Origin: Escherichia coli
Lineage (GTDB): Bacteria > Pseudomonadota > Gammaproteobacteria > Enterobacterales > Enterobacteriaceae
Assembly (NCBI RefSeq): GCF_044647545.1
Contig: NZ_CP172818.1
Direction: 5' to 3' (one strand)
Length of the DNA stretch: 64,000 bases
Shown: positions 9,993 through 43,247 of the stretch, piece after piece
Layout: each line of letters opens with the position of its first letter
Position numbering within the stretch: position 1 is the stretch's first letter
Notes under the pieces: model-generated
Told to the model about the DNA's origin: nothing
The model's input: the letters and a program-made list of their open reading frames with translations, nothing else
Database searches by the model: none
Program-made: the position numbers and the translations under genes

Positions 9993-10236
9993 TAGCGTTT
10001 AATTTAATTCCTCTCAGGTTGGGTAATATGAATTTCGAATAGCAGTCATATTTCCTAACTCCTTGTCTATACTCCAGAAGATAACCTTACAGACGGCATA
10101 ATGCGCGGTAGCTCACAACCTGATTAAATTTTCTCAGGGGCGAAGGTGTGCCTGCAAGCCGCCGTCTATGGTTAAACAAGGAGATATTTTTACGGCACGG
10201 CGGCTGAACAATTAATTACGACAGGAGTAAGACTTT

Positions 10237-11382: not shown

Positions 11383-11399
11383 CTTCGCTGGGGTGTTTT

Positions 11400-12413: not shown

Positions 12414-13355
12414 ATGGCGATGAACGTATTGCAATCACCTTCACATCCAGGTCTGGGTAAGGTGTCCGGTTTCTTCTGGCGTAATCCGGGGCTGGGGCTG
12501 TTTTTACTGCTGCTTGGCCCGCTAATGTGGTTTGGCATTGTCTATTTCGGCTCGCTGCTGACACTGTTATGGCAGGGATTTTATACCTTTGACGATTTCA
12601 CCATGTCGGTAACGCCGGAACTGACGCTGGCCAATATCCGTGCGCTGTTTAATCCGGCGAATTACGACATCATTCTCCGCACGCTGATTATGGCTGTGGC
12701 AGTCACTATCGCCAGCGCCATTCTGGCTTTTCCAATGGCGTGGTATATGGCGCGCTATACCAGCGGGAAAATGAAAGCGTTTTTTTATATCGCGGTAATG
12801 TTGCCGATGTGGGCGAGCTACATTGTGAAAGCCTATGCCTGGACGTTATTGCTTGCAAAAGATGGCGTGGCGCAGTGGTTTTTACAACATCTGGGGCTGG
12901 AACCACTGCTGACGGCGTTCCTTACATTACCTGCGGTGGGCGGCAATACGCTGTCAACTTCCGGGCTGGGGCGCTTTCTGGTGTTTCTCTATATCTGGCT
13001 GCCGTTCATGATCCTGCCCGTGCAGGCGGCGCTTGAGCGTTTGCCGCCGTCATTGTTGCAGGCGTCAGCTGATCTCGGCGCACGTCCACGACAAACCTTT
13101 CGCTATGTGGTGCTGCCGCTGGCGATCCCGGGTATTGCTGCTGGCTCTATCTTTACCTTCTCACTCACACTGGGCGATTTTATCGTCCCGCAGCTGGTTG
13201 GCCCGCCAGGATATTTTATCGGCAATATGGTTTATTCCCAGCAGGGGGCGATTGGCAATATGCCGATGGCGGCGGCATTCACCCTGGTGCCGATTGTTCT
13301 CATCGCACTGTACCTGGCGTTCGTGAAACGTCTGGGAGCGTTCGATGCACTCTGA
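12414..13355 (+). CDS. ydcU: ABC transporter permease YdcU
   Basis: 313-aa hydrophobic ORF; start adjoins ydcT stop. Confidence 0.9.
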
Positions 13356-14139
13356 ACGCGCACCGTTTTTCCTCAAACTGGCGGCCTGGGGCGGCGTGGT
13401 TTTCCTACATTTTCCCATCCTGATTATCGCCGCCTATGCGTTTAACACTGAAGATGCGGCGTTTAGTTTTCCACCGCAAGGCCTGACGCTGCGCTGGTTT
13501 AGCGTGGCAGCACAGCGTAGTGATATTCTTGATGCCGTGACACTGTCACTTAAAGTGGCAGCGCTGGCGACATTAATCGCGCTGGTGTTAGGGACGCTGG
13601 CCGCTGCCGCGCTGTGGCGACGAGACTTTTTCGGCAAAAACGCCATTTCGCTGTTACTGCTGCTGCCCATTGCGCTGCCGGGCATTGTCACTGGTCTGGC
13701 GCTATTAACCGCCTTTAAAACCATCAATCTGGAGCCGGGATTTTTCACCATCGTGGTCGGCCATGCGACTTTTTGCGTAGTGGTGGTGTTTAACAATGTC
13801 ATCGCCCGTTTTCGCCGCACCTCGTGGAGTCTGGTTGAGGCGTCAATGGATCTTGGGGCCAATGGCTGGCAAACCTTCCGCTACGTAGTGTTGCCGAATC
13901 TCAGTTCGGCGCTACTGGCAGGAGGAATGCTGGCGTTTGCCTTGTCGTTCGATGAAATCATCGTGACGACCTTTACGGCAGGTCATGAACGAACGTTACC
14001 GTTGTGGTTGCTCAATCAGCTTGGGCGACCGCGTGATGTACCGGTAACCAACGTGGTGGCACTGCTGGTTATGTTGGTAACAACCTTGCCGATCCTGGGA
14101 GCCTGGTGGCTAACCCGCGAAGGCGACAATGGTCAATAA
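13345..14139 (+). CDS. ydcV: ABC transporter permease YdcV
   Basis: 264-aa hydrophobic ORF overlapping ydcU by 11 nt. Confidence 0.9.
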
Positions 14140-14160
14140 CCACTGATACAGGAATATGCT

Positions 14161-15585
14161 ATGCAACATAAGTTACTGATTAACGGAGAACTGGTTAGCG
14201 GCGAAGGGGAAAAACAGCCTGTCTATAATCCGGCAACGGGGGACGTTTTACTAGAGATTGCCGAGGCATCCGCAGAGCAGGTGGATGCTGCTGTTCGCGC
14301 GGCAGATGCAGCATTTGCCGAATGGGGGCAAACCACGCCGAAAGCGCGTGCGGAATGCCTGCTGAAACTGGCTGATGTTATCGAAGAAAATGGTCAGGTT
14401 TTTGCCGAACTGGAGTCCCGTAACTGTGGCAAACCGCTGCATAGTGCGTTCAATGATGAAATTCCGGCGATTGTCGATGTCTTTCGCTTTTTCGCCGGAG
14501 CAGCTCGCTGCCTGAATGGTCTGGCGGCAGGTGAATATCTTGAAGGTCATACTTCGATGATCCGTCGCGATCCGTTGGGAGTCGTGGCTTCTATCGCACC
14601 GTGGAATTATCCGCTGATGATGGCAGCGTGGAAACTGGCTCCGGCGCTGGCGGCAGGGAACTGCGTAGTGCTCAAACCATCAGAAATTACCCCGCTGACC
14701 GCGTTGAAGTTGGCAGAGCTGGCGAAAGATATCTTCCCGGCAGGCGTGATTAACGTACTGTTTGGCAGAGGCAAAACGGTGGGCGATCCGCTGACCGGAC
14801 ATCCCAAAGTGCGGATGGTGTCGCTGACGGGCTCTATCGCCACTGGGGAACACATCATCAGCCATACCGCGCCGTCCATTAAGCGTACTCATATGGAACT
14901 TGGTGGCAAAGCGCCAGTGATTGTTTTTGATGATGCGGATATTGAAGCTGTGGTCGAAGGTGTACGTACTTTTGGCTATTACAATGCCGGACAGGATTGT
15001 ACTGCGGCTTGTCGGCTCTACGCGCAAAAAGGCATTTACGATACGCTGGTGGAAAAACTCGGTGCTGCGGTGGCAACGTTAAAATCGGGTTCGCCGGATG
15101 ACGAGTCTACGGAGCTTGGACCTTTAAGCTCGCTGGCGCATCTCGAACGCGTCAGCAAGGCGGTAGAAGAGGCGAAAGCGACAGGGCACATCAAAGTGAT
15201 CACTGGCGGTGAAAAGCGCAAGGGTAATGGCTATTACTATGCGCCGACGCTGCTGGCTGGCGCATTACAGGACGATGCCATCGTGCAAAAAGAGGTATTT
15301 GGTCCGGTAGTGAGTGTTACGCTCTTCGACAACGAAGAACAGGTGGTGAATTGGGCAAATGACAGCCAGTACGGACTTGCATCCTCGGTATGGACGAAAG
15401 ATGTGGGCAGGGCGCATCGCGTCAGCGCGCGGCTGCAATATGGTTGTACCTGGGTCAATACCCATTTCATGCTGGTAAGTGAAATGCCGCACGGTGGGCA
15501 GAAACTTTCTGGTTACGGCAAGGATATGTCACTTTATGGGCTGGAGGATTACACCGTCGTCCGCCACGTCATGGTTAAACATTAA
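14161..15585 (+). CDS. patD: Gamma-aminobutyraldehyde dehydrogenase PatD (YdcW/Prr)
   Basis: 474 aa; aldehyde-dehydrogenase motifs MELGGKAP and catalytic Cys region GQDCTAAC. Confidence 0.93.
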
Positions 15586-15632
15586 GGGTAATATTGCAGA
15601 TCGTAAGAGTATGAGATGATCTTGCGTACTGT

Positions 15633-15663
15633 CAGAGCACTGATTTCTCTGACAGTACGTGCT
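15633..15663. terminator. Intergenic hairpin between convergent patD and yncL
   Basis: Inverted repeat gtactgtcagag ... ctctgacagtac. Confidence 0.4.
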
Positions 15664-15681
15664 GCGTGCAAAATCACTACA

Positions 15682-15777
15682 TCAAATAAACCAGCCAAAT
15701 CTCATAGAGATAAGAGTAAACAAACCAACAGCAGCAAAGACATTTATCAGTACTACAGTTCTACTGGAAACATTCAT
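15682..15777 (-). CDS. yncL: Small membrane protein YncL (31 aa)
   Basis: Hand-translated minus-strand ORF MNVSSRTVVLINVFAAVGLFTLISMRFGWFI; below the track's length cut-off. Confidence 0.7.
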   Translation of the reverse strand: MNVSSRTVVLINVFAAVGLFTLISMRFGWFI

Positions 15778-15971
15778 TTTTGCCACCTTTTATCATTGCC
15801 CCTATGTGTATAGTACGGGTTAAGAAAATCCGCAATAATACTCATTCTGAAGATGGATAAGGACAAGTTGCTGTTTGATGATTTTTTCTCAAACTGGTGA
15901 AAAAATTTGATGCACGTCAAAAAATGACGCATATTTGCGCGCGTTTTATTCATCTGGCTGGACGCCCGTAC

Positions 15972-16145
15972 ATGTCTCTCTATCAACACATGCTTGTTTT
16001 TTATGCGGTTATGGCAGCAATCGCATTTCTTATCACCTGGTTTCTTTCTCACGATAAGAAACGCATCCGTTTCTTAAGCGCCTTTCTGGTGGGGGCAACA
16101 TGGCCGATGAGTTTCCCGGTGGCGCTGTTGTTTTCACTGTTTTAA
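15972..16145 (+). CDS. ortT: Orphan membrane toxin OrtT (YdcX), 57 aa
   Basis: Track ORF 15897..16145; internal start MSLYQHMLVFYAVMAAIAFLITWFLSHDKKRIRFLSAFLVGATWPMSFPVALLFSLF gives 57 aa with two TM helices. Confidence 0.8.
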   Translation: MSLYQHMLVFYAVMAAIAFLITWFLSHDKKRIRFLSAFLVGATWPMSFPVALLFSLF

Positions 16146-16230
16146 ATCTTACTCACTGGCTTGACGGCACCACGCAGACTTATATCATTTGGATGAATCG
16201 ATAAATTTCACAAGTGGCTAAGGAGAAAGT

Positions 16231-16464
16231 ATGTCGCATCTGGATGAAGTCATCGCGCGCGTGGATGCCGCGATTGAAGAGAGCGTCATTGCCCATATGA
16301 ACGAATTATTAATCGCCCTGAGCGATGACGCGGAGTTAAGTCGGGAAGATCGCTACACCCAGCAGCAGCGTTTGCGCACAGCGATCGCCCATCACGGTCG
16401 CAAGCATAAAGAAGATATGGAAGCGCGCCATGAACAGTTAACCAAAGGCGGCACCATCCTGTGA
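16231..16464 (+). CDS. ydcY: Uncharacterised protein YdcY
   Basis: 77-aa ORF. Confidence 0.8.
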   Translation: MSHLDEVIARVDAAIEESVIAHMNELLIALSDDAELSREDRYTQQQRLRTAIAHHGRKHKEDMEARHEQLTKGGTIL

Positions 16465-16914
16465 TTAAAATGAGCGTCTGGCTACCAACCAGGCGCCAAC
16501 CACAAGTAAAATTGCGCCACAAATTGGGCCGAACAACGCCCGTAGTGGTACGCCATGACTGCGAAAGATATCCAGCACCAGACCGCCAATCAGCTGGCTG
16601 GCGACCAGTACTGCAATAGTTGTCGCCGCTCCCACATTCTGATATCCGCTGATACTGGCGAAGACAAAAAACGATCCCAGCAAGCCAGGTATAAGTGTCC
16701 ACCAGCGCACGCTGGACACCAGTTCGCCAAACCCCGCCATACCTTGTTTAAACCATAAAATAGAAACAAAGAGCACAATCCCCACCAGTGAGTTCAGCAA
16801 CATGGCGATGAGAATGGTAGAGGAGGTCTGGGTGATGCGCACCATCAGCGTGTTCTGGACTACCAGACCAATTCCGGCGGCAATCAAAAAAGCAAGGGTG
16901 AGCGACTGATTCAT
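16465..16914 (-). CDS. ydcZ: Inner-membrane protein YdcZ (DUF606)
   Basis: 149-aa hydrophobic ORF; overlaps the mnaT stop by 4 nt. Confidence 0.85.
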   Translation of the reverse strand: MNQSLTLAFLIAAGIGLVVQNTLMVRITQTSSTILIAMLLNSLVGIVLFVSILWFKQGMAGFGELVSSVRWWTLIPGLLGSFFVFASISGYQNVGAATTIAVLVASQLIGGLVLDIFRSHGVPLRALFGPICGAILLVVGAWLVARRSF

Positions 16915-17429
16915 CCAATCGCGTCCGGTTCAGTGCGCTCGTCGAGTTGCAACTGCATAAATGTCAGATCCAGCCAGCGCCCAAATTTAGTGCCCACCTG
17001 CGGCATTTGTGCGGTGATGACAAATCCCAGCGACTGGTGGAGATGCAGCGAAGCCTGATTTTGCGATTCGATCCCGGCGACCATGACATGCTTCCCGCAA
17101 TCCCGCGCTTCATCAATCAATCGGCTTAACAATTTACGCCCCAGACCTTTGCCCTGATGATCGGGATGGACATAAACCGAATGTTCCACGGTATGGCGAA
17201 AACCATCGAAACTACGCCAGTCGCCAAACGAGGCATATCCCGTCACTACGCCATCTTGTTCACTTACCAGCACTGGATAACCAGCTAAAGTCCGCGCTTC
17301 AAACCAGGCAATGCGATTATCTGCATCCACCGTTTGGTCATTCCAGATAGCCGCCGTATACAACACGGCGTGGTTATAAATTTCCGCAATGGCAGCACAG
17401 TCGGCTTTGCGGGCAAAACGGATGGACAT
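16911..17429 (-). CDS. mnaT: GNAT-family L-amino acid N-acyltransferase MnaT (YncA)
   Basis: Track ORF 16911..17663; internal start MSIRFARKADCAAIAEIYN gives 172 aa; GNAT motif QGKGLGRKLL. Confidence 0.88.
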   Translation of the reverse strand: MSIRFARKADCAAIAEIYNHAVLYTAAIWNDQTVDADNRIAWFEARTLAGYPVLVSEQDGVVTGYASFGDWRSFDGFRHTVEHSVYVHPDHQGKGLGRKLLSRLIDEARDCGKHVMVAGIESQNQASLHLHQSLGFVITAQMPQVGTKFGRWLDLTFMQLQLDERTEPDAIG

Positions 17430-17609
17430 GTTTGGCCTCAATAAAATAATGATGATGACGTTATCAATACTATCGAAAACAGCCCGAAGCAACGGATTCC
17501 TCGATGAAATTATTGCGTGTTGCAGAGGGGATGTGACGGCTGCAAACAAAACCATTCCTGCGAGCCTGCTACTATTGATGGATTCATGCCAAAAGCACAG
17601 GAGAGCATT

Positions 17610-18647
17610 ATGGGGCAACAAAAGCAGCGTAACCGCCGTTGGGTTCTGGCCTCGCGTCCGCATGGCGCGCCGGTTCCGGAGAATTTCCGTCTTGAAGAAG
17701 ATGATGTCGCCACACCGGGTGAAGGACAGGTGTTACTGCGCACAGTTTATTTGTCCCTGGACCCGTATATGCGTGGACGTATGAGCGATGAGCCATCTTA
17801 TTCACCGCCTGTTGATATTGGCGGCGTTATGGTCGGCGGCACGGTGAGCCGTGTCGTGGAGTCGAATCATCCTGATTATCAGCCTGGCGACTGGGTACTG
17901 GGCTACAGTGGATGGCAGGACTATGACATATCCAGTGGTGATGAACTGGTGAAACTTGGCGATCATCCGCAAAATCCATCGTGGTCGCTGGGTGTGCTGG
18001 GGATGCCAGGCTTTACTGCTTATATGGGCCTACTGGATATCGGTCAGCCTAAAGAGGGCGAAACGCTGGTGGTTGCGGCGGCGACAGGACCAGTAGGGGC
18101 GACGGTGGGGCAAATCGGCAAACTTAAAGGTTGCAGAGTGGTGGGGGTAGCCGGTGGCGCGGAAAAATGCCGCCATGCTACCGAGGTGTTAGGCTTCGAT
18201 GTTTGCCTTGATCACCACGCGGACGATTTTGCCGAACAACTGGCGAAAGCGTGCCCAAAAGGTATTGATATCTATTATGAAAACGTGGGCGGTAAGGTAT
18301 TTGATGCAGTGCTACCATTACTTAATACATCTGCGCGCATTCCCGTTTGTGGCTTAGTGAGCAGCTATAACGATACAGAGCTACCACCCGGTCCGGATCG
18401 TTTACCCCTGTTGATGGCAACGGTGCTGAAAAAACGCATTCGCTTGCAAGGGTTTATTATTAGTCAGGATTATGGTCACCGCATCCATGAGTTTCAGCAA
18501 GAGATGGGGCAGTGGGTAAAAGAGGGAAAAATTCACTATCGTGAACAAGTTACCAACGGTTTGGAGAACGCCCCACAGACGTTTATTGGCCTGCTGAACG
18601 GCAAAAACTTCGGTAAAGTTGTTATTCGCGTCGCGGGTGATGACTAA
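17610..18647 (+). CDS. curA: NADPH-dependent curcumin/dihydrocurcumin reductase CurA (YncB)
   Basis: Track ORF 17517..18647; start at MGQQKQRNRRW (GGAGA RBS 6 nt upstream) gives 345 aa; nucleotide-binding motif AAATGPVGATVGQ. Confidence 0.9.
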   Translation: MGQQKQRNRRWVLASRPHGAPVPENFRLEEDDVATPGEGQVLLRTVYLSLDPYMRGRMSDEPSYSPPVDIGGVMVGGTVSRVVESNHPDYQPGDWVLGYSGWQDYDISSGDELVKLGDHPQNPSWSLGVLGMPGFTAYMGLLDIGQPKEGETLVVAAATGPVGATVGQIGKLKGCRVVGVAGGAEKCRHATEVLGFDVCLDHHADDFAEQLAKACPKGIDIYYENVGGKVFDAVLPLLNTSARIPVCGLVSSYNDTELPPGPDRLPLLMATVLKKRIRLQGFIISQDYGHRIHEFQQEMGQWVKEGKIHYREQVTNGLENAPQTFIGLLNGKNFGKVVIRVAGDD

Positions 18648-18655
18648 AGATACGA

Positions 18656-18676
18656 CGGCGGCGTAAAGCCGCCACA
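18656..18676 (+). terminator. Hairpin downstream of curA
   Basis: ggcggc-gtaaa-gccgcc stem-loop; weak U-tract. Confidence 0.35.
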
Positions 18677-18845
18677 AAAATCCAGGCAAAAATCTTATTT
18701 CCAGCTTTAATTAACTAACTACATCACTGTTCGACGGCTAATAACAATAAAGATGAGTGGATAATGATTATTCAGCTTCATACGCCAGGTAAACAACTTC
18801 TGCTATACCGGCAGAGTTAGAACGAATACACGTGAAGGAAATAAC

Positions 18846-19511
18846 ATGCCTGGAACGGAAAAAATACCGCATATCAGTTTGACTATGCAGGTTGAGAACG
18901 ACCTGAAACATCAGCTTAGTATTGGCGCATTAAAACCTGGCGCACGCCTGATTACTAAAAATCTGGCGGAGCAATTAGGTATGAGTATTACACCCGTGCG
19001 TGAAGCATTATTACGTCTGGTTTCGGTGAATGCGCTTTCTGTCGCACCAGCGCAAGCATTTACAGTTCCGGAAGTGGGGAAACGTCAATTAGACGAAATC
19101 AATCGGATTCGCTACGAACTGGAATTAATGGCAGTTACTCTGGCTGTTGAAAACCTCACCCCGCAAGACCTGGCGGAACTAGAGGAATTGCTCGAGAAAT
19201 TACAGCAGGCGCAAGAAAAGGGCGACATGGAACAAATCATTAATGCGAACAGGCTATTTCGCTTAGCGATTTATCATCGTTCAAATATGCCCATCCTGTG
19301 TGAAATGATTGAGCAACTGTGGATCAGGATGGGACCTGGTTTACATTATCTTTATGAAGCGATTAACCCAGCGGAATTACGTGAGCGTATAGAAAGCTAT
19401 CATGAACTACTCGCCGCGTTAAAAGTAAAAGACAAAGAGGGATGCAGTCATTGTCTTGCTGAAATTATGCAAAAAAACGTTGCTATGTTATACCAGCAAT
19501 ATAATCGTTAA
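18846..19511 (+). CDS. mcbR: GntR/FadR-family regulator McbR (YncC)
   Basis: 221-aa ORF with N-terminal winged HTH. Confidence 0.9.
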   Translation: MPGTEKIPHISLTMQVENDLKHQLSIGALKPGARLITKNLAEQLGMSITPVREALLRLVSVNALSVAPAQAFTVPEVGKRQLDEINRIRYELELMAVTLAVENLTPQDLAELEELLEKLQQAQEKGDMEQIINANRLFRLAIYHRSNMPILCEMIEQLWIRMGPGLHYLYEAINPAELRERIESYHELLAALKVKDKEGCSHCLAEIMQKNVAMLYQQYNR

Positions 19512-32887: not shown

Positions 32888-33733
32888 ATGACGCCCATTC
32901 TGAATCACTATTTTGCCCGTATTAACTGGTTGGGAGCTGCTGCGGCCAATATTGATACGCTGCGTGCATTGCACCTGAAACACAATTGCACCATTCCGTT
33001 TGAAAATCTCGACGTTTTGCTGCCGAGGGAAATACAGCTTGATGATCAATCGCTGGAAGAGAAACTGGTGATAGCCCGTCGTGGCGGTTACTGTTTTGAG
33101 CAGAATGGCGTGTTTGAGCGTGTGTTACGCGAGCTGGGGTTTAACGTTCGCAGCTTGTTAGGGCGCGTAGTGTTATCAAATCCGCCAGCATTACCGCCGC
33201 GCACCCATCGTTTGCTGTTGGTGGAACTGGAAGGGGAAAAATGGATTGCTGATGTCGGTTTCGGTGGGCAGACGCTAACCGCGCCGATTCGTTTAATGCC
33301 GGATATCATGCAAACCACGCCACACGGAGAGTATCGGTTGTTGCAAGAGGGTGATGATTGGGTGTTGCAGTTTAATCATCATCAGCACTGGCAGTCGATG
33401 TACCGTTTTGATCTCTGCGAGCAGCAACAAAGCGATTATGTGATGGGCAATTTCTGGTCGGCGCATTGGCCGCAGTCGCATTTTCGCCATCATTTGCTGA
33501 TGTGTCGCCATTTGCCGGACGGTGGCAAGCTGACACTGACCAATTTTCATTTTACCCATTATGAAAATGGGCACGCAGTTAAGCAGCGAAATCTACCAGA
33601 TGTGGCGTCGTTATATGCCGTGATGCAGGAACAGTTTGGTCTGGGCGTAGATGATGCGAAACATGGCTTTACTGTGGATGAGTTAGCGCTGGTGATGGCG
33701 GCGTTTGATACGCACCCGGAGGCGGGAAAATAA
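32888..33733 (+). CDS. nhoA: Arylamine N-acetyltransferase / N-hydroxyarylamine O-acetyltransferase NhoA
   Basis: 281 aa; catalytic Cys context RRGGYCFEQN. Confidence 0.93.
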   Translation: MTPILNHYFARINWLGAAAANIDTLRALHLKHNCTIPFENLDVLLPREIQLDDQSLEEKLVIARRGGYCFEQNGVFERVLRELGFNVRSLLGRVVLSNPPALPPRTHRLLLVELEGEKWIADVGFGGQTLTAPIRLMPDIMQTTPHGEYRLLQEGDDWVLQFNHHQHWQSMYRFDLCEQQQSDYVMGNFWSAHWPQSHFRHHLLMCRHLPDGGKLTLTNFHFTHYENGHAVKQRNLPDVASLYAVMQEQFGLGVDDAKHGFTVDELALVMAAFDTHPEAGK

Positions 33734-33744
33734 TTTATGTCAGG

Positions 33745-33825
33745 TTGCCGGATGTGGCGTAAATGCCTAATCCGGCATACATTAGTCCGGTTGTAGGCCT
33801 GATAAGCGAAGCGCATCAGGCAACG
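33745..33825. repeat. REP/BIME cluster between nhoA and yddE
   Basis: tgccggatgtggcgtaaatgcctaatccggc ... gtaggcctgataagcgaagcgcatcaggca, a classic REP palindrome pair. Confidence 0.75.
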
Positions 33826-33828
33826 GTT

Positions 33829-34722
33829 TCAGAGTTCAATTGCCCATTCGGCATGAAACAAAATCACCGCCGTGCCAGAAATGGTGACTTTCTCCGGTTG
33901 GTTATCACGAATTGTCACCGTCACTTCAATCACGCCTTCACGCCCTAATGCGCGCCCCTGATGGCCTTTAACACGCAACACGTTGCCATCGTGTGGCAAT
34001 ACGTTGTGATGTACTAACCATGCACCCATCGGGCCATTGGCATTGCCAGTCACCGGATCTTCCACAATACCAATCGCAGGCGAGAACATGCGACCATCGG
34101 TTTCGTTTTTGCCTGGGCGGATCTGGAACGGGAAGAAACCATTGCAGCCAATCTGTTTGCTGATTGTGGTCAGCGCAGCAAGGTCAGGCGAAAGGGCGTC
34201 GATATCCACTTCCGGCTTCAGTGGAATCATCACTTTTGAGTGTCCTGTGGTAGCCACCTGGATTGGCAAGCCTTGCAAAATATCGTCTTCAGTGAGATGA
34301 AGCGCGTTGATAATCGCTGCACGTGTTTCACCTTTCAGCGGTGGCTCAAAGCCTGGAGTACCTTGTTCCAGCGAAATACGATAATCATCATTTTGCTTTT
34401 CGATAGTCACACGATGTTTTCCTGCCAGCGACGTTTGCCAGACGGTGCAATTTCCTAAACCTAACACCTTTGCACGTACATAGTGCGCAGCTACTGTCGC
34501 GTGACCACAAATCGGAACTTCAACCGTTGGCGTAAAGTAGCGGATGCGCACATCGCTGTCGTCGCTGTGCAGCAGAAAAGCAGTTTCCGAATGACCTAAC
34601 TCGCGGGCGATAAGCTGCATTTGCGCTTCGCTAAGATTATCGGCGGGGAAAACAACACCGGCAGAATTGCCGCGAAACGGTTGAGAGGTAAAAGCATCGA
34701 CGTGGTAAACCTGCGGTTTCAT
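33829..34722 (-). CDS. yddE: PhzF-family isomerase-like protein YddE
   Basis: 297-aa ORF. Confidence 0.9.
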   Translation of the reverse strand: MKPQVYHVDAFTSQPFRGNSAGVVFPADNLSEAQMQLIARELGHSETAFLLHSDDSDVRIRYFTPTVEVPICGHATVAAHYVRAKVLGLGNCTVWQTSLAGKHRVTIEKQNDDYRISLEQGTPGFEPPLKGETRAAIINALHLTEDDILQGLPIQVATTGHSKVMIPLKPEVDIDALSPDLAALTTISKQIGCNGFFPFQIRPGKNETDGRMFSPAIGIVEDPVTGNANGPMGAWLVHHNVLPHDGNVLRVKGHQGRALGREGVIEVTVTIRDNQPEKVTISGTAVILFHAEWAIEL

Positions 34723-34801
34723 TAATGTTCTCCTGTGGCTGGAGAACTATCATAGCCTGCAAGTGGCCGGAGAGCGAAGAGCTATCCGGCCCGCGAGAGA
34801 A

Positions 34802-35482
34802 TTAACGCCGCGAACGCACAATCTGATACCGACGAGTAAAGTACTCAAACGGCGCGCTCCAGACATGCACCAGTCGGGTGAACGGGAAGAGCAGAAAGAT
34901 GGTCATTCCAAGCACCAGATGAACGCGGAATATAAAGGCGACACCATCAAGATGCGTAGATGCACCGCCCTGGAAAGTGACAATGCTTTGCGCCCAGCCC
35001 ACCAGCTTCATCATTTCACTGCCGTCCGGATGTTGTGCTGAAAAAGGAATGGTGGTTAACCCAAGAATGCACTGAATTAACAAAATAGCGAGGATCAGGA
35101 TATCCGCACCAGAAGACGTCGCCCTGATACGCGGATTTGTTAAACGACGCACCAGTAGCCCCGCACCGCCAATCAGCGTCAATACCCCGCATATTCCGCC
35201 GAGGATCATCGCCATTAGTTGTTTCGCTGCCACTGGCAAAAACCACGCGTACATCCAGTGCGGCGTTAACATGCCGAACAGGTGCCCGAAGAAAATCCCC
35301 AAAATGCCGATATGGAACAGATTCGACCACAGCACCATACCACGTTTATCCAGCATCTGGCTGGAGGCGGCGCGCCAGGTATACTGCCCGTAATCGTAGC
35401 GCAGCCAGCTTCCAAGGATAAAAACCGTGCCACACAAGTACGGGTAGATATCGTAAAAAAAGACGTTCAGATACTGAATCAT
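34802..35482 (-). CDS. narV: Nitrate reductase Z gamma subunit (cytochrome b) NarV
   Basis: 226-aa hydrophobic ORF; last gene of narZYWV. Confidence 0.92.
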
Positions 35483-36174
35483 TTCCCACCTCCCGCACTG
35501 ATGTCGACATACTGCGGCGCGACATCCTGGCTAAAGCGTCGCTGATATTGATTAAGCGGCGAGCTGTCACACGCCGTGGCGTTATCTTCAATAAACTTCA
35601 CCTGTTCTTCTTCCCACACCGCATCCAGCGCCTGGCGGGTGTCGTCACGCTCTTCACTGCGAATCTGTTTTGTGACGCTGTCACTTGACAGAGGGCTTCC
35701 TGCCAGTTGCAACAGGGTGTCAAATAACGCGTACCACGGTGCCTCGCGTTGTTTTAAGCGTCCGCCAAGCAGGGCGAGGATCGGCGCAACGTTGAGCAAG
35801 CCTTCTTTCGCCTGATCGTCCGGCAGTACGCTTAAGTACTCCAGATACAGCGGCAGATAATCGGGCAGTTCTCGACAATCCAACTGCAGACCGACCTTTT
35901 CATACTCCGCCAGCAGGTCCACCATTGCCTGGCCGCGATCGCGGGACTCGGCATGAACATGTTCGAACAGCAGCAGCGATGTGGTACGTCCACGGTCAAA
36001 CACTTCGCACCATTCGGCCTGTTTATCCAGCAGCGGCGCGTTAAGCAGGTTGCGGGTAAAATCCGTAAGCATCGGTGCGTCGCGGCGGATCAACGCCAGC
36101 GCGTCCTCCTTACATTCCCACAACAGCTCGTCCGGATACTCCATCAACAGGCCGATCACTTTGAGGATCTGCAT
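35479..36174 (-). CDS. narW: Nitrate reductase Z assembly chaperone NarW
   Basis: 231-aa ORF overlapping narV by 4 nt. Confidence 0.92.
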
Positions 36175-37718
36175 TATTCGCCCTCCGCTTTGTCGCGCAC
36201 TTCGGTGATGTTGATGGCATCGATACGGCTACTGTTGAACAGGTTGAATTTGCTGTCCGAGCCGTGGCAACCGTCGCCAAAGGTAAAACCGCAGCCGTTG
36301 CGTTCTGCGAAGGCATCGCCCGCCATTTCCCGATGGCTTGTCGGGATGACAAAACGGTCTTCATAGTTGGCAATGGCGAGGTAACGATACATCTCTTCGA
36401 CCTGGGCGACGCTCAGACCTACTTCGTCGATGGCACGAGTATCAGTAACGCCTTCCACGGTTTGTGAACGCATATAGTGGCGCATCGCCATCATCCGTTT
36501 CAGCGCCCGCAGTACCGGACCGGTATCACCGGCACTCAACATATTGGCGAGATATTGCACCGGAATACGCAGGCTTTCGATGGCGGGCAGCACGCCTTCG
36601 CTTTTCGGCAAACCTCCCGCATCAGCGTAGGACTGAATCGGTGACAGCGGCGGAACGTACCAGACCATCGGCAGAGTGCGGTATTCAGGGTGCAGCGGTA
36701 GCGCCAGTTTCCAGTCCATTGCCATTTTGTAGACTGGCGAACGCTGGGCAGCGTCAATCACGTTTTGTGGAATACCTTGTTTCAGGGCTTCCTCGATCAC
36801 CGAGGGATCGTGCGGATCGAGGAACACTTCGCACTGGCGTTCATAGAGGTCAACTTCGCGCTCGGTGCTCGCCGCTTCCTCGATGCGGTCGGCGTCGTAA
36901 AGCAGCACGCCCAGATATCGGATGCGACCCACGCAGGTTTCTGAGCACACGGTGGGTTGGCCTGACTCAATTCGTGGGTAACAGAAGATGCATTTTTCTG
37001 ACTTGCCGCTTTTCCAGTTGAAGTAGATTTTTTTGTACGGACAACCGCTAATGCACAAACGCCAGCCACGGCATTTATCCTGATCAATCAGCACAATGCC
37101 GTCTTCTTCACGTTTGTAGATAGCACCGCTTGGGCAGGTCGCCACGCAGCTGGGATTGAGGCAGTGTTCGCACAGGCGCGGCAGGTACATCATGAACGTG
37201 TTTTCAAACTGCCCGTACATCTCCTTTTGCATGGCCTCGAAGTTGCGGTCGCGGGCGCGTTTTTCAAATTCGCCGCCCAACAATTCTTCCCAGTTTGGCC
37301 CCCAGATCACTTTGTCCATCCGTTTGCCGTCAATCAGTGAACGCGGGCGCGCAGTAGGAATATGTTTACCTTCTGGCGCGCTATGCAAATGTTCGTAGTC
37401 GAAGGTGAAAGGTTCGTAGTAATCATCAATCTGCGGCACCACCGGGTTGGCGAAGATTTTGGTAATCACGCCCATCTTGCTGCCCAGACGCGGGCGGATC
37501 TTGCCATTCACATCACGCACCCAGCCGCCTTGCCACTCTTCCTGATCTTCCCAGTTTTTCGGATAACCAATGCCCGGTTTGGTTTCGACGTTGTTAAACC
37601 ATGCGTACTCCATGCCTTCGCGTCTGGTCCAGACGTTTTTACAGGTCACCGAACAGGTATGGCAGCCGATACATTTATCGAGGTTAAGCACCATGCCGAC
37701 TTGCGAACGTATTTTCAT
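36174..37718 (-). CDS. narY: Nitrate reductase Z beta (Fe-S) subunit NarY
   Basis: 514 aa; ferredoxin-type Cys clusters CIGCHTCSVTC and CEHCLNPSCVATCPSGA. Confidence 0.95.
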   Translation of the reverse strand: MKIRSQVGMVLNLDKCIGCHTCSVTCKNVWTRREGMEYAWFNNVETKPGIGYPKNWEDQEEWQGGWVRDVNGKIRPRLGSKMGVITKIFANPVVPQIDDYYEPFTFDYEHLHSAPEGKHIPTARPRSLIDGKRMDKVIWGPNWEELLGGEFEKRARDRNFEAMQKEMYGQFENTFMMYLPRLCEHCLNPSCVATCPSGAIYKREEDGIVLIDQDKCRGWRLCISGCPYKKIYFNWKSGKSEKCIFCYPRIESGQPTVCSETCVGRIRYLGVLLYDADRIEEAASTEREVDLYERQCEVFLDPHDPSVIEEALKQGIPQNVIDAAQRSPVYKMAMDWKLALPLHPEYRTLPMVWYVPPLSPIQSYADAGGLPKSEGVLPAIESLRIPVQYLANMLSAGDTGPVLRALKRMMAMRHYMRSQTVEGVTDTRAIDEVGLSVAQVEEMYRYLAIANYEDRFVIPTSHREMAGDAFAERNGCGFTFGDGCHGSDSKFNLFNSSRIDAINITEVRDKAEGE

Positions 37719-40700
37719 TTTTTCGCCTCCTGAACCTGATCGCGACCTTCATCATCCAGCCAGTTAACGTTCTTCATCTTGCGGATCATGATGAATTCGT
37801 CGCGGTTCGAGCCGACGGTGCCGTAGTAGTTAAAGCCCCAGGCCAGCTGCGCGTAACCGCCAATCATATGCGTTGGTTTCGGACAAACGCGGGTGACCGA
37901 GTTATGAATGCCGCCGCGCATGCCAGTTACTTCCGAACCAGGAATATTCATAATGCGTTCCTGGGCGTGATACATCATGGTCATGCCCGGCGGTACACGT
38001 TGGCTGACCACCGCGCGGGCCGTCAGCGCGCCGTTGGCGTTAAACACTTCCACCCAGTCGTTATCGACAATGGTCAGTTCACGGGCATCGGTTTCGCTGA
38101 TCCAGACAATTGGTCCACCGCGAGAGAGCGTCAGCATTAGCAGGTTTTCACTGTAGGTTGAGTGAATGCCCCATTTCTGGTGCGGCGTCAGGAAGTTAAG
38201 TGCTTTTTCCGGGAAGCCGTTTGGCGGTATCTGGCGCATTTCACTGACGCTACGGGTGTCGATAGGCGGGCGATAAGCCACCAGGCTTTCACCAAAAGCA
38301 CGCATCCACGGATGATCCTGATAGAGCTGCTGGCGTCCCGACAGCGTGCGCCACGGAATTAACTCATGAACGTTGGTGTATCCCGCGTTATAGGAAACGT
38401 GATCGCTTTCCAGACCGGACCATGTGGGGCTGGAGATAATTTTACGTGGCTGCGCCTGAATATCGCGAAAGCGAATCTTCTCGTCCTCTTTGTGCAGCGC
38501 CAGATGGGTATGTTCGCGTCCGGTGATCTCGCCCAGCGCCTGCCACGCTTTGACTGCAACATGACCGTTGGTTTCCGGTGCCAGCGCCAGAATCACTTCT
38601 GATGCGTCAATGGCGGTGTCAATCAGCGGACGCCCCTGTGCCGGGCCTTCACGCTTGGTGTAGTTGAGTTTGCCGAGGAAATCGATTTCATCCTGGGTAT
38701 TCCACGAAATCCCTTTACCGCCGTTGCCAAGTTTGTCCATCAATGGCCCGAGCGAGGTAAAGCGTTCATAGGTAGCAGGGTAGTCGCGTTCCACCGCCAC
38801 AATATTGGGCGCGGTTTTACCCGGGATCAGATCGCATTCGCCTTTGCGCCAGTCGAGCACTTCACACGGCTGGGAGAGTTCTGCCGGAGAGTCATGTAGC
38901 AGTGGTTGTAATACCACGTCGGTTTCTTTGCCAAGATGACCCACGCACAGTTGCGAAAATGCTTTGGCGATACCTTTGTAGATTTCCCAGTCGCTGCGTG
39001 ATTCCCACGCCGGATCGACCGCCGCAGAAAGCGGATGAATAAACGGATGCATATCCGAGGTGTTCATATCGTCTTTTTCGTACCAGGTGGCGGTGGGCAG
39101 AACGATATCGGAGAACAGGCAGGTACTGGACATACGGAAGTCGAGCGTCACCAGCAGGTCGAGCTTGCCTTCAATCGCCGCAGTTTGCCACTCGACTTCT
39201 TCCGGTTTGATCCCGTCGCTGGCACCGAGTTCCTCGCCCTGAATCCCGCTTTCGGTCCCCAGCAGATACTTCTGCATATACTCGTGGCCTTTGCCGGAGG
39301 AACCAAGCAGGTTAGAACGCCAGACAAACAAATTACGCGGATGATTGCTGCCGCTATCGGGTTGTTCGCAGGCCATACGTAAATCGCCCGATTTCAGCGC
39401 CTGGGCGGTGAATTCTGTGGGAGATAATCCGGCCTTGTCGGCTTCAGCTTTAATCCCGAGCGGATTACGCCCCAACTGCGGCGCAGAAGGTAGCCAGCCC
39501 ATACGTTCGGCGCGAACGTTGAAATCAATCAGATGACCGCTGTACTTACTGGCATCGGCCAGCGGTGAAAGTAACTCCTGAGCAGAGACTTTTTCATAGC
39601 GCCATTGGCTGGAATGATTGTAGAAAAACGAGGTGCTGTTCATCTGGCGCGGTGGTCGGTTCCAGTCGAGCGCAAAGGCCAGTGGCAACCAGCCGGTTTG
39701 CGGGCGCAGTTTTTCCTGACCGACATAGTGTGCCCAGCCGCCACCGCTTTGCCCGACACAACCGCAGAAGATCAGCATGTTGATCATCCCACGGTAATTC
39801 ATGTCCATGTGGTACCAGTGGTTAACACCTGCGCCGAGGATAATCATCGAGCGCCCATGCGTTTTATGGGCAGTATCGGCAAATTCACGAGCGATGGTTT
39901 CAATATACTGGCGCGGCACACCGGTAATTTGCTCACCCCAGGCTGGGGTGTACGGTTTGATTTCAGCGTAATCTTTCGCGCTGTTTTCATCTTCCAGCCC
40001 GCGATCGAGGCCATAATTCGCCAGTACCAAATCATAAACGCTGACCACCGGACAGGTGTTGCCATCGGCTAATGTCAGGTTTTTAACGGGCAATTGGCGC
40101 ACCAGGACCGGATTGTGTTTTACGCTACGAAAATGCGGATTTTCAATGCCGCCAAAGTAGGGGAAGGCCACGCCTGCAACGGCATCATGTTGACCGAGCA
40201 GAGTTAACGACAATTCGGTTTCCGTACCGGCGGCAATGGATTCCAGATTCCATTTGCCTTTTTCTCCCCAGCGAAAACCAATCGAACCGTTCGGCACCAC
40301 CAGTTCACCTGCGGTATTAACCGCCACGGTTTTCCACTGCGGATTATTGCTTTCGCCCAGTCCATCCACCAGGTCAGATGCGCGGACCATGCGCCCGGGA
40401 ACGTAGCTGCCGTCGTCGCGAGGTTCCAGCATTACCAGCATCGGCATGTCGCTGTAGCGGCGGCAGTAGTTGATAAAATAATCGCTGGGATTATCGAGAT
40501 GAAACTCTTTTAAAATGACATGGCCCATTGCCATTGCCAGGGCACTATCAGTGCCTTGTTTTGGTGCCAGCCACTGGTCGCACAATTTGGCCACTTCAGA
40601 GTAGTCAGGGGTAATGGCGATGGTTTTAGTGCCTTTGTAGCGTACTTCGGTAAAGAAATGGGCGTCCGGCGTACGTGTCTGCGGTACGTTAGACCCCCAG

Positions 40701-41455
40701 GCGATGATGTAACTGGAGTTATACCAGTCGGCAGATTCCGGCACGTCGGTTTGTTCGCCCCAGGTCATCGGCGAGGCGGGCGGCAGGTCGCAATACCAGT
40801 CGTAGAAGCTTAAACAGGTGCCACCTAACAGCGACAGATAACGTGTTCCGGCGGCGTAAGAAACCATCGACATCGCCGGGATCGGCGAGAAACCGGCAAC
40901 GCGATCCGGGCCGTAAGTTTTGATGGTCCAGACGTTAGCAGCGGCAATCAGCTGGTTTAGCTCCTGCCAGTTGGAGCGGATAAAGCCGCCGCGTCCACGT
41001 ACTTGTTTGTAGCTCAGGCACTTTTGCGGATCGTTCATAATCGATGCCCACGCCAGTACCGGATCGCTGTGTTGCTTGAGGGCTTCGCGCCACAGTTCAA
41101 TCAGTCGTTTACGAATGAGCGGGTATTTCAGACGGTTAGCGCTGTAGAGATACCAGGAGTAACTTGCGCCACGCGGGCAGCCGCGAGGTTCATGATTGGG
41201 CAGGTCAGGGCGAGTGCGCGGGTAGTCGGTCTGTTGGATTTCCCAGGTCACCAGACCATTTTTAACGTAGATTTTCCAGCTACAGGAGCCTGTACAGTTA
41301 ACACCGTGGGTGGAACGCACGATTTTGTCGAACTGCCAACGCTGGCGATAGCTGTCCTCCCAGTCGCGGTTGCTATGCATCACCTGTCCGTGACCATCGG
41401 CAAAGGTTTCGCCCTTTTGTTTGAAGTAGCGAAAGCGATCCAAAAGTTTACTCAT
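37715..41455 (-). CDS. narZ: Nitrate reductase Z alpha (molybdopterin) subunit NarZ
   Basis: Track ORF 37715..41578; internal start MSKLLDRFRYFKQKGETF (GGAG RBS) gives 1246 aa. Confidence 0.95.
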   Translation of the reverse strand: MSKLLDRFRYFKQKGETFADGHGQVMHSNRDWEDSYRQRWQFDKIVRSTHGVNCTGSCSWKIYVKNGLVTWEIQQTDYPRTRPDLPNHEPRGCPRGASYSWYLYSANRLKYPLIRKRLIELWREALKQHSDPVLAWASIMNDPQKCLSYKQVRGRGGFIRSNWQELNQLIAAANVWTIKTYGPDRVAGFSPIPAMSMVSYAAGTRYLSLLGGTCLSFYDWYCDLPPASPMTWGEQTDVPESADWYNSSYIIAWGSNVPQTRTPDAHFFTEVRYKGTKTIAITPDYSEVAKLCDQWLAPKQGTDSALAMAMGHVILKEFHLDNPSDYFINYCRRYSDMPMLVMLEPRDDGSYVPGRMVRASDLVDGLGESNNPQWKTVAVNTAGELVVPNGSIGFRWGEKGKWNLESIAAGTETELSLTLLGQHDAVAGVAFPYFGGIENPHFRSVKHNPVLVRQLPVKNLTLADGNTCPVVSVYDLVLANYGLDRGLEDENSAKDYAEIKPYTPAWGEQITGVPRQYIETIAREFADTAHKTHGRSMIILGAGVNHWYHMDMNYRGMINMLIFCGCVGQSGGGWAHYVGQEKLRPQTGWLPLAFALDWNRPPRQMNSTSFFYNHSSQWRYEKVSAQELLSPLADASKYSGHLIDFNVRAERMGWLPSAPQLGRNPLGIKAEADKAGLSPTEFTAQALKSGDLRMACEQPDSGSNHPRNLFVWRSNLLGSSGKGHEYMQKYLLGTESGIQGEELGASDGIKPEEVEWQTAAIEGKLDLLVTLDFRMSSTCLFSDIVLPTATWYEKDDMNTSDMHPFIHPLSAAVDPAWESRSDWEIYKGIAKAFSQLCVGHLGKETDVVLQPLLHDSPAELSQPCEVLDWRKGECDLIPGKTAPNIVAVERDYPATYERFTSLGPLMDKLGNGGKGISWNTQDEIDFLGKLNYTKREGPAQGRPLIDTAIDASEVILALAPETNGHVAVKAWQALGEITGREHTHLALHKEDEKIRFRDIQAQPRKIISSPTWSGLESDHVSYNAGYTNVHELIPWRTLSGRQQLYQDHPWMRAFGESLVAYRPPIDTRSVSEMRQIPPNGFPEKALNFLTPHQKWGIHSTYSENLLMLTLSRGGPIVWISETDARELTIVDNDWVEVFNANGALTARAVVSQRVPPGMTMMYHAQERIMNIPGSEVTGMRGGIHNSVTRVCPKPTHMIGGYAQLAWGFNYYGTVGSNRDEFIMIRKMKNVNWLDDEGRDQVQEAKK

Positions 41456-41489
41456 GACATAACTCCTGCTCCAGGAATGAATTGGGATC

Positions 41490-41545
41490 TGATGCCTTGT
41501 CGGACGCGACACGGTTGTAGCCTGATAAGACGTGTCAGGCATCGA
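41490..41545. repeat. REP-like element between narU and narZ
   Basis: Reverse strand reads gcctgacacgtcttatcaggctac, matching the REP core. Confidence 0.55.
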
Positions 41546-41549
41546 TCTC

Positions 41550-42938
41550 TTATTTTTGGCTGAACTTCCGCCGACCATAAACCAGCCAGGTCAGTAGCAC
41601 GCAAACGATGTAGAAGATTAAAAACACTTTCATCGCGCCCACCGGAGAGCCGGTCATATTGAGCGACATGCCAAACGCCTGCGGAATAAAAAAGCCGCCC
41701 ACTGCGCCAATGGCTGAGATAAAGCCCAGAGCGGCTGCCGTTTCGGTGACGGCTTCTCTTTGAGCTTGCTCATCACTACCGCCTTTCATCTTCACCCGAT
41801 AAATGGTTATCTGGCGAAAGATGACGGCGATCATCTGGAAAGTAGAACCACTTCCCAGACCCGCGGTCAGAAACAGCCCCATAAATACGGCGTAAAATGC
41901 GATGAAATTACCGGAGCCTGTGCCCGGTAAGGTAAGGAACAGCAGGGCGCTGAAAATCGCCATAAAAATGAAGTTGATCAACGTCACCCGCACGCCGCCG
42001 AATTTATCGGAAATAGCACCACCAACCGATCGCGCGATGGCACCGATAAATGGGCCAAAGAACGCCAGGCGCAGAATATTCACATCCGGGAACTGGGTTT
42101 TTGCCAGCATGGCAAAACCCGCAGAAAAACCGATAAACGAACCGAAGGTGGCAAGATAAAGCAGGCTCAGTAGCCAGAGATGCAGGCGTTGTAAGACAGG
42201 GAGCTGGTCGGCAATTGAGGCGCGTGAACTGGCGATATCATTCATCCCTGACCAGGCGGCGATCGTGGCAATCGCCAGTAATGGCACCCAAATCCATGCG
42301 GCATTCGCCAGCGACATCACCGAACCGTCGGCCTGCGGTACGCCATTGACGCCGAGAAAGGCAAATACGGGTACAAAAATGACCAGCGGTGCAACCAGCT
42401 GCATCACACTTACACCTAAGTTTCCTAATCCGCCATTAATCCCAAGTGCGCTCCCTTGTTTGGCTTTTGGGAAGAAGAAACTGATATTGCCCATGCTCGA
42501 AGCAAAGTTCGCACCTGCAAAACCGCATAGCAAAGCGATAACGATAAATATCCCAAAAGGAGTATTCGGATTCTGCACGGCAATTCCGAGCCAGACGCAA
42601 GGAATAATCAGGATTGCAGTACTAAAAACCGTCCATCGGCGTCCACCGAATATAGGCACCATAAAGGAGTAGGGGACACGCAATAATGCGCCAGAAACGG
42701 AGGGTAATGCGGTTAATAAAAAGAGTTGATCGGTAGTGAAATTAAAACCGATTTTATTGAGATTAACAGTAACTGCGCTAAATAGCATCCAGACACAGAA
42801 GGCAAGAAGTAGACAACTGACTGATATCCAGAGGTTTCTTCGTGCAATATGCTTTCCTTTATTTTCCCAGAAGGCCGGATTTTCTGGTTTCCAGTCGCGT
42901 AAAAGATAACGACTATTTTTCTCATTTTGCAGTGCCAT
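41550..42938 (-). CDS. narU: Nitrate/nitrite transporter NarU (MFS)
   Basis: Track ORF 41550..42980; internal start MALQNEKNSRYLL (GAGGAA RBS) gives 462 aa. Confidence 0.93.
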   Translation of the reverse strand: MALQNEKNSRYLLRDWKPENPAFWENKGKHIARRNLWISVSCLLLAFCVWMLFSAVTVNLNKIGFNFTTDQLFLLTALPSVSGALLRVPYSFMVPIFGGRRWTVFSTAILIIPCVWLGIAVQNPNTPFGIFIVIALLCGFAGANFASSMGNISFFFPKAKQGSALGINGGLGNLGVSVMQLVAPLVIFVPVFAFLGVNGVPQADGSVMSLANAAWIWVPLLAIATIAAWSGMNDIASSRASIADQLPVLQRLHLWLLSLLYLATFGSFIGFSAGFAMLAKTQFPDVNILRLAFFGPFIGAIARSVGGAISDKFGGVRVTLINFIFMAIFSALLFLTLPGTGSGNFIAFYAVFMGLFLTAGLGSGSTFQMIAVIFRQITIYRVKMKGGSDEQAQREAVTETAAALGFISAIGAVGGFFIPQAFGMSLNMTGSPVGAMKVFLIFYIVCVLLTWLVYGRRKFSQK

Positions 42939-43247
42939 ATTGTTCCTCACATGCACACATTGGTAATGAAAAAAAGACAAAACAGGAGGTAAGGCGCAAT
43001 AGCCAGTTATTAGAATTAAGGATGAATCAGGTGAAGTGCTGATTAGAAGAATAGATAAGAAAGCGTAACTGCGGAGGCAGAATGTGGATTAAACAGACAG
43101 ATATGTGTTACTAAATGTAACCATCAAACGGGGGTTAATCTTTGAACGTATGTCATGTTTCAACCCTTCAGATCGTGAATCTAAAGGGTTGCATATTAAC
43201 TATATTCTCAACAAGACCAGACAATTATAGAATTAGTGATGATTTAT

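Follow-up and report, generated by a model that had tools for sequence, protein, structure and literature searches.

A 64,000-nucleotide stretch of Escherichia coli DNA (RefSeq assembly GCF_044647545.1, contig NZ_CP172818.1; the whole stretch is called the window here) contains the narUZYWV genes in an intact and ordinary form. They make up the second respiratory nitrate reductase locus of E. coli, a stress-phase system that has long been known. Sequencing, naming and study of the locus date back to about 1990. An initial annotation of the window, made from the sequence alone, had noted a repetitive extragenic palindromic (REP)-like element between the transporter gene narU and the reductase genes narZYWV and had read it as a sign of separate transcription units. 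Our analysis leads instead to the view, held with good confidence, that narUZYWV most likely form one transcription unit driven from upstream of narU, and that the REP-like element is a decayed remnant lying within it. We infer the exact promoter, its start site and the single-transcript status from conserved sequence blocks read together with published expression data.

The locus spans 34802–42938, exactly from the narV stop to the narU start, and its genes were called from the open reading frame (ORF) listing together with the RefSeq annotation of a 100%-identical genome:

34802–35482, minus strand: narV, gamma subunit of nitrate reductase Z, a dihaem cytochrome b and quinol-oxidising membrane anchor, 226 amino acids (TIGR00351 narI equivalog, 413 bits against a cut-off of 105, full length; PF02665)
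35479–36174, minus strand: narW, NarJ-type private chaperone for molybdenum (Mo) cofactor insertion, 231 amino acids (NF011628, PRK15054, equivalog, 511 bits against a cut-off of 410; TIGR00684 narJ)
36174–37718, minus strand: narY, beta subunit with four Fe-S clusters, 514 amino acids (TIGR01660 narH equivalog, 981 bits; Fer4_11 and Nitr_red_bet_C domains)
37715–41455, minus strand: narZ, catalytic alpha subunit with Mo-bis-molybdopterin guanine dinucleotide (Mo-bisMGD), 1246 amino acids (TIGR01580 narG equivalog, 2332 bits; Molybdopterin PF00384, Molydop_binding PF01568 and Nitr_red_alph_N PF14710)
41550–42938, minus strand: narU, NarK-family major facilitator superfamily nitrate/nitrite transporter, 462 amino acids (NF011608, PRK15034 NarU, 1021 bits against a cut-off of 836, residues 1–462 of 462; TIGR00886, 341 bits against a cut-off of 312)

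A probable single transcription unit

Published data tie the expression of all five genes to DNA upstream of narU. A point mutation in strain BW25113 raises the transcripts of all five genes together with reporter activity (PMC11417348), and this mutation maps 263 nt upstream of the narU ATG, at a site whose homologue in the window is 43190. The promoter of what is termed the 'narUZYWV TU' (transcription unit) is bound by OmpR, whose loss lowers the transcripts of this unit (PMC5438342). A cis mutation and a regulator-binding site that both lie upstream of narU thus alter all five transcripts, which argues against an independent narZYWV unit.

The spacer between narU and narZ is 94 nt long (41456–41549) and holds neither a U-tract terminator nor a promoter-like site, and in two Citrobacter genomes it is reduced to 37 nt that carry only the narZ ribosome-binding site and no hairpin. 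REPs are not promoters and, without a U-tract, are not intrinsic terminators; the element in the window lacks a U-tract. At the 3′ end of narU, synonymous sites are no better conserved than in the gene as a whole (0.55–0.63 for third positions of four-fold-type codons, against a gene mean of 0.60), which argues that no conserved element is embedded there. An intrinsic-terminator scan of 41300–43400 returned two terminator-like matches, both inside narU and at a frequency not above chance. The step from a REP-like element to separate transcription units is thus unsupported and probably wrong, and the element should not be taken as an operon boundary.

To the 5′ side of narU, an alignment of 11 sequences from at least six genera revealed two invariant blocks amid otherwise diverged sequence, and only there did we find non-coding blocks conserved across genera. 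The features of this region are as follows:

43102–43121, minus strand: OmpR-like tandem box GTTACATTTA-GTAACACATA, about 60–80 nt upstream of the candidate −10
43046–43063, minus strand: block CTTTCTTATCTATTCTTC, containing a candidate sigma-S-type −10, TC-TATTCT (hexamer 43048–43053)
43009–43035, minus strand: predicted sigma-70 'constitutive' narU promoter TTCACC-16-TCTAAT, conserved only within Escherichia

The upper block, TTACAaTTAGTAACA (43102–43121), stands alone in the 64-kb window in matching the OmpR repeat GTTACATTTTGTTACAT (motif taken from PMC5438342) with three or fewer mismatches, where 0.19 would be expected by chance, and its TTACA...GTAACA sequence is invariant across the genera of the alignment. 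OmpR occupancy at the narU promoter region has also been recorded by chromatin immunoprecipitation with exonuclease trimming (ChIP-exo; PMC5438342). The lower block, CTTTtTTATCTATTCTT (43046–43063), is invariant or nearly so in the 11 sequences from six or more genera. Its TC-TATTCT fits the sigma-S extended −10 consensus KCTAYRCTTAA, including −13C and −8C, and transcription would then start near 43041. The more proximal sigma-70 promoter was assigned to narU, in the narU–yddJ spacer, by genomic SELEX (systematic evolution of ligands by exponential enrichment) with RpoD holoenzyme (PMC3946193), and its TTCACC ... TCTAAT sequence is present in the window. The regulatory information of the locus thus appears to lie within about 190 nt upstream of narU, and the two blocks, invariant in at least six genera, are testable candidates for a sigma-S promoter and an OmpR site.

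Farther upstream, the E. coli-specific part of this region includes a 12-bp inverted repeat, AACCCTTTAGAT-TCACG-ATCTGAAGGGTT, at 43162–43191. The BW25113 mutation, T1538580C, which is adaptive to ciprofloxacin, falls on the first base of this repeat (window 43190), and the adjoining base, 43191, is a mismatch between the window and K-12. The segment with the inverted repeat is missing from E. albertii and from the plasmid copy of the locus described below.

We scanned the spacer, the last 400 nt of narU and the 309 nt upstream of narU for matches to the FNR consensus, for single NarL heptamers and for heptamers in 7-2-7 arrangement. No FNR or NarL site with two or fewer mismatches occurs in any of these three regions, and the narU–narZ spacer holds no FNR site even at three or fewer mismatches. 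The same scan recovered FNR sites with no mismatch and three to four NarL heptamers at the K-12 narK and narG promoters. Three-mismatch FNR matches upstream of narU were taken as chance, because real control sites have zero to one mismatch. The initial annotation had seen no canonical FNR site upstream of narZ, which these controls bear out and which holds upstream of narU as well; the motif scans that it proposed for the spacer and the narU upstream region yield no FNR or NarL sites, together with a sigma-S-type −10 upstream of narU. Its further suggestion, that the locus is regulated differently from narGHJI, is correct but already published rather than a new inference. According to PMC7759655, which cites Chang 1999 and Spector 1999, NarZ is under RpoS control, and anaerobiosis represses it even with nitrate. 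Nitrate reductase Z (NRZ) is also FNR-repressed in Salmonella (PMC8139620), OmpR activates narUZYWV under osmotic stress (PMC5438342), and narU, narZ and narY are co-induced in late stationary phase (PMC4015609).

Taken together, these observations suggest that the five genes would be transcribed from about 100–190 nt upstream of narU, from a region that would combine a sigma-S-type −10 with an OmpR-like activator box and carry no FNR or NarL sites. Such a layout fits the published RpoS-dependent, stationary-phase expression and the OmpR-dependent response to osmotic stress, as well as the lack of induction by anaerobiosis and nitrate.

Several points weigh against a single unit, and some of them speak directly for a different arrangement, which we consider improbable, in which narU has a transcript to itself that stops at the REP-like hairpin while narZYWV is expressed from its own promoter in the spacer or the narU 3′ end. 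The classic name is 'narZYWV operon', and a RegulonDB-derived table gives narU as its own transcription unit (PMC6469107). In one stationary-phase microarray, the fold-change of narU is 62-fold, against 13–19-fold for narZ and narY (PMC4015609). A study in strain CFT073 cloned narZYWV with a 'native promoter' fragment that begins inside narU. That the five transcripts vary together proves that transcription reads through the spacer, not that a second promoter is lacking. The sigma-S −10 assignment, for its part, draws on a consensus match and on conservation and is correspondingly tentative. Finally, a generic sigma-70 promoter scan of 41300–43400 found no minus-strand promoter, even upstream of narU where one must exist, and its silence in the spacer is therefore weak evidence.

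The CFT073 construct illustrates how far such points reach. Its forward primer anneals at 42058–42078, inside narU and 623 nt upstream of narZ, so the cloned fragment lacks the narU upstream region. An internal promoter is thus an assumption made by some authors and not put to the test by their data, and the complementation is uninformative on this question because the reported assays do not isolate NRZ expression from the fragment. Given the spacer without terminator or promoter-like site, its reduction to 37 nt in Citrobacter, the narU 3′ end without synonymous-site conservation and the response of all five transcripts to events upstream of narU, we favour a single narUZYWV unit, which leaves room for an additional weak internal promoter.

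A REP remnant in the narU–narZ spacer

Two features occupy the spacer:

41486–41547, minus strand: decayed REP (bacterial interspersed mosaic element, BIME) remnant, forming an RNA hairpin that begins 3 nt past the narU stop codon and lacks a U-tract
41463–41472, minus strand: narZ Shine-Dalgarno region GGAGCAGGAG, the sole part of the spacer conserved across genera

The REP-like element of the initial annotation is real, as a decayed remnant. Aligned with gaps against REP consensus sequences, it scores 30 for the 3′ half of the Z2 class, CGTCTTATCAGG-CTAC, the best of 500 shuffles reaching 24, and REPs occupy the homologous site in other genomes. Measured by the definition that we applied (an imperfect palindrome of 35–40 nt with a GCC(G/T)GATG head and a CTTATC(C/A)GGCCTAC tail), the tail carries one deletion, and the head and most of the stem are gone. 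The inverted second half of the remnant, taken alone, reaches a p of only about 0.05–0.5, and it is homologous to a full REP of E. albertii. An ungapped REP-tail search of the window did not catch the remnant; this search detects a genuine inverted REP pair (BIME) at 33765–33808, in the nhoA–yddE spacer (3 matches against 0.08 expected), which we used as a positive example of a REP within the window and which shows that the family is dispersed in several copies in the same genome. An Rfam scan of 33500–45000 gave nothing in the nar locus, including no match of the REP-derived naRNA4 type at the remnant; close to the genuine pair, at 33739–33777, it gave a sub-threshold naRNA4 match (29 bits against a gathering score of 59.5).

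Comparison of spacers across genomes indicates rapid turnover at this site. The K-12 spacer is 81 nt long and differs from the 94-nt spacer of the window by a 13-nt indel in the palindrome; the 94-nt allele occurs in 1864 E. coli genomes and the 81-nt K-12 allele in 3551. A scan for NarW with one genome per species gave 21 NRZ-type loci, from 19 of which we compared the spacers. Their length across Enterobacteriaceae ranges from 37 to 260 nt, and the REP copies are lineage-specific. The 126-nt spacer of E. albertii has a full Y-type REP at the position of the window fragment ...GCGTCCGACAAGGCATCAG, the 260-nt spacer of the GTDB E. coli representative has a cluster of several REPs and that of Citrobacter youngae ATCC 29220 a typical inverted REP pair; Pluralibacter carries its own REP type, and Enterobacter a plain hairpin. 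All 19 spacers finish in (G)GAGCAGGAG..ATGTC-ATG or a close variant, and the remainder is unrelated. On this comparison, we read the palindrome as what is left of a REP inserted into a spacer where such elements have been acquired and lost again and again. Most likely it at most modulates mRNA stability or the narU:narZ expression ratio, and is neither a promoter nor an operon boundary.

Even within one operon, the hairpin might act as a 3′–5′ exonuclease barrier or partial terminator that stabilises the narU segment and sets the narU:narZYWV ratio. In a variant of this idea, its start 3 nt past the stop codon would dampen NarU translation termination, and the 81- and 94-nt alleles would tune the effect differently. 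Newbury is said to have described in 1987 effects of REPs on upstream mRNA stability, and Liang, Rudd and Deutscher reportedly found in 2015 that a REP within about 15 nt of a stop codon affects translation. The outer stem, GAUCGAUGCCU/AGGCAUCAGAUC, is common to the window, K-12 and E. albertii alleles and has survived the deletions inside the element; folding of these three Escherichia alleles gives z-scores of −2.2, −3.6 and −5.1. A hairpin or REP is found in the spacer of unrelated genera too, and narU is induced more than narZ and narY in one dataset (PMC4015609). The window allele itself (folding energy of −20.4 kcal/mol, z = −2.2) nevertheless barely beats its shuffles: folding is equally good in 4 of 200 when the 66-nt core is shuffled and in 15 of 200 when the entire spacer is. 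The two Citrobacter genomes without a hairpin make the element dispensable for the locus. No function is needed to explain the pattern, for which the turnover of REPs at a permissive spacer suffices. A functional hairpin is therefore possible but doubtful, a judgement independent of those on one unit or two, and we prefer to see in it a decayed REP within a single operon.

Identity and integrity of the locus

With 10 kb in all, the locus and its surroundings are 100% identical to several complete E. coli chromosomes. All five genes have zero internal stops and the lengths of their K-12 orthologues, and each of the five proteins has a full-length NCBIfam equivalog or subfamily match above the curated cut-off together with the expected Pfam domains. 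NarU belongs to the NarU subfamily, as the NarU-specific model is matched over its full length and above cut-off. Read directly from the sequence, the junctions are ATGA for narZ/narY (4-nt overlap), TAATG for narY/narW (1 nt) and ATGA for narW/narV (4 nt), and a Shine-Dalgarno sequence stands ahead of each of them. The description of narZYWV and narU as five intact genes with overlaps of 4, 1 and 4 nt was thus accurate.

The mechanical narZ ORF extends to 41578 and would give 1287 instead of 1246 amino acids, because the frame is open for 41 codons 5′ of the true start (41456–41578) and crosses the REP remnant into the end of narU. We assign the true start to the ATG at 41455, after GGAGCAGGAG, because of the Shine-Dalgarno sequence there and because the first 110 residues are near-identical to those of NarG. 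NarZ would be translated from this conserved Shine-Dalgarno sequence of its own, and narY, narW and narV would be translationally coupled through their 4-, 1- and 4-nt overlaps.

Alignment to NarG, NarH and NarI confirms that every Mo, Fe-S and haem ligand is retained, in agreement with the Fe-S and molybdopterin motifs noted by the earlier reader. NarZ conserves the FS0 ligands His50, Cys54, Cys58 and Cys93 and the Mo ligand Asp223; NarY keeps all 15 cluster cysteines plus the Trp at the 3Fe-4S position (W219, equivalent to NarH W220); and the NarV haem ligands His57, His67, His188 and His206 align with NarI His56, His66, His187 and His205. Alpha, beta and gamma subunits thus show the features of a NarGHI-type membrane-bound respiratory nitrate reductase (dimethyl sulfoxide-reductase family type II), and a NarJ-family chaperone gene, narW, is present between the beta and gamma genes. 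The product of narZYWV is accordingly recognisable, by homology, as respiratory nitrate reductase Z, a membrane-bound enzyme predicted to face the cytoplasm, and its nitrate reductase activity can be presumed from the 99.6% identity to the biochemically characterised K-12 NRZ subunits. By homology to NarGHI, NarV would oxidise quinol via two b haems and pass electrons to the four NarY Fe-S clusters, then to FS0 of NarZ and on to Mo-bisMGD, at which nitrate would be reduced to nitrite, with NarW serving as the dedicated assembly chaperone.

Two types of narV in E. coli

NarV of the window is 88.9% identical to K-12 NarV, against 98–99.6% for its neighbours. The divergence is concentrated in a 381-bp patch at 34880–35260 (core of about 240 bp, 34921–35160) that is about 77% identical to K-12 (core about 70%) between flanks of 92–100%. 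E. coli splits accordingly: about 1293 narV records share at least 95% identity with the window type, about 4158, which are of K-12 type, reach only about 77%, and there is almost nothing between. The window type includes B2 strains such as E2348/69 and ST131. Its core is 88–92% identical to those of E. albertii and a divergent Escherichia genome, whereas the K-12-type core shares only about 70% identity with these and has its nearest counterparts in narV of Enterobacter and Lelliottia (73–79%). Among the 79 patch codons, 30 have synonymous changes only and 19 replacements, and the haem ligands are intact, a pattern in which purifying selection appears visible.

Gene conversion from E. coli narI was considered as a source and rejected: both alleles are 57–72% identical to narI across the patch, and informative sites divide 46 to 36. 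We also looked for a donor of the K-12-type patch; in 80 enterobacterial nar loci, a set without Salmonella, nothing was nearer than about 79% (Lelliottia). Most simply, the comparison suggests that the K-12 allele of narV reached the majority lineage of E. coli long ago from another genus. The K-12-type patch alters 19 of 79 residues of the quinol-side membrane subunit, and, if it is an import, the NRZ of the laboratory reference may differ from the ancestral enzyme of Escherichia; a recombinant reference narV is otherwise of minor population-genetic interest. The spacer alleles (1864 against 3551) partition unlike the narV alleles (about 1293 against 4158), a discordance that implies recombination within the locus. 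Two more ambitious readings share a low probability in our estimate. In one, the spacer hairpin is a selected cis-element that sets the transporter-to-reductase ratio, which the two alleles would tune differently; in the other, K-12-type narV, in about three quarters of E. coli, carries a roughly 240–380 bp import from an Enterobacter/Lelliottia-like donor and makes the reference NRZ a non-ancestral form.

Neighbouring genes and a plasmid copy

The locus is flanked downstream by yddE and upstream by a leucine-rich-repeat (LRR) gene homologous to yddK/yddJ. The LRR gene (43248–44504) is intact, with 418 amino acids as annotated and weak similarity to SlrP and internalin LRRs, and corresponds in K-12 to the fragments yddJ and yddK. 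Beyond it, 45996–47096 holds a full-length OmpC-family porin gene where K-12 has a short yddL remnant. The narV–yddE spacer (34723–34801) contains only a GGCCGGA...TCCGGCC hairpin, and Escherichia has no U-tract terminator after narV; a −10-like box, GCTATGAT, and the yddE Shine-Dalgarno sequence are conserved there in Escherichia as well as in most Citrobacter. In other genera, canonical terminators or REPs follow narV, and yddE is missing.

A complete narU–narV cassette, homologous to about 34510–43125 of the window, also occurs at 10200–19090 of the IncHI1B plasmid pPSS-10_1 (NZ_AP027686.1, 160 kb). It is bounded by the insertion sequences (ISs) IS1, inside yddE, and ISKpn26, just upstream of the GTTACA box, and its homology to the chromosome runs from the GTTACA/OmpR-like box, about 190 nt upstream of narU, to 210 nt into yddE; an IS1-flanked lactate-utilisation cluster adjoins it. 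In PLSDB, 43 Escherichia records match the cassette at 95–99%, some of which are chromosomes labelled as plasmids. Capture of the whole operon by IS elements onto IncHI1B plasmids is of minor population-genetic interest; with only about 190 nt upstream of narU, the pPSS-10_1 cassette may be counted as a natural experiment in favour of a promoter upstream of narU.

Comparison with known systems

The closest counterpart is K-12 narU-narZYWV (b1469–b1465), which has the same genes, order, strand relationships, overlaps and flanks (yddE and a yddK-like LRR gene), so that the K-12 region b1464–b1471 has the arrangement of the locus and its flanks. NarZ, NarY and NarU are 99.6% identical to their K-12 counterparts, NarW 97.8% and NarV 88.9%, and the upstream regulatory region is about 95% identical. 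The two differ in the spacer (94 nt in the window, 81 nt in K-12), in the narV patch, of which the foreign version would be that of K-12, and in the upstream LRR gene, intact in the window and split or pseudogenised in K-12.

Identity to the proteins of nitrate reductase A (NRA) is much lower, with NarZ, NarY, NarW and NarV at 78.8, 77.7, 56.3 and 75.2% to NarG, NarH, NarJ and NarI, and NarU at 74.8% to NarK. With 99.6% for NarZ, NarY and NarU against K-12 NRZ and 75–79% against NarG, NarH and NarK, the locus is therefore the NRZ paralogue and not NRA, and the yddE–narU neighbourhood and the lack of FNR and NarL sites in the three scanned regions likewise mark it as an NRZ orthologue. It shares with narK-narGHJI a paralogous five-gene order (transporter, alpha, beta, chaperone, gamma), identical cofactor ligands and overlap-coupled downstream genes. 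The spacers of the two loci differ: that of narK–narG is 515 nt long and contains the narG promoter, a perfect FNR site, NarL heptamers and the NarS small RNA, whereas the 94-nt narU–narZ spacer has none of these, and the Rfam scan of 33500–45000 found no NarS-like small RNA downstream of narU. Likewise, narK has its own FNR/NarL promoter, and the narU upstream region has sites for neither regulator.

Set beside REPs and BIMEs, the remnant is typical in being extragenic, within one probable operon, an imperfect palindrome and provided with the CGTCTTATCAGG(C)CTAC tail of the Z2 class. It differs in consisting of fragments of two inverted REPs, from each of which internal deletions have removed most of the stem.

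The locus as a whole has been called 'poorly conserved even in Escherichia' (PMC5438342). This statement conflicts with our count, in which narUZYWV is present in 5411 of 5426 complete E. coli genomes (99.7%), nearly always in single copy, and the locus is also found in E. albertii, Citrobacter, Enterobacter, Kluyvera, Lelliottia, Pluralibacter and others.

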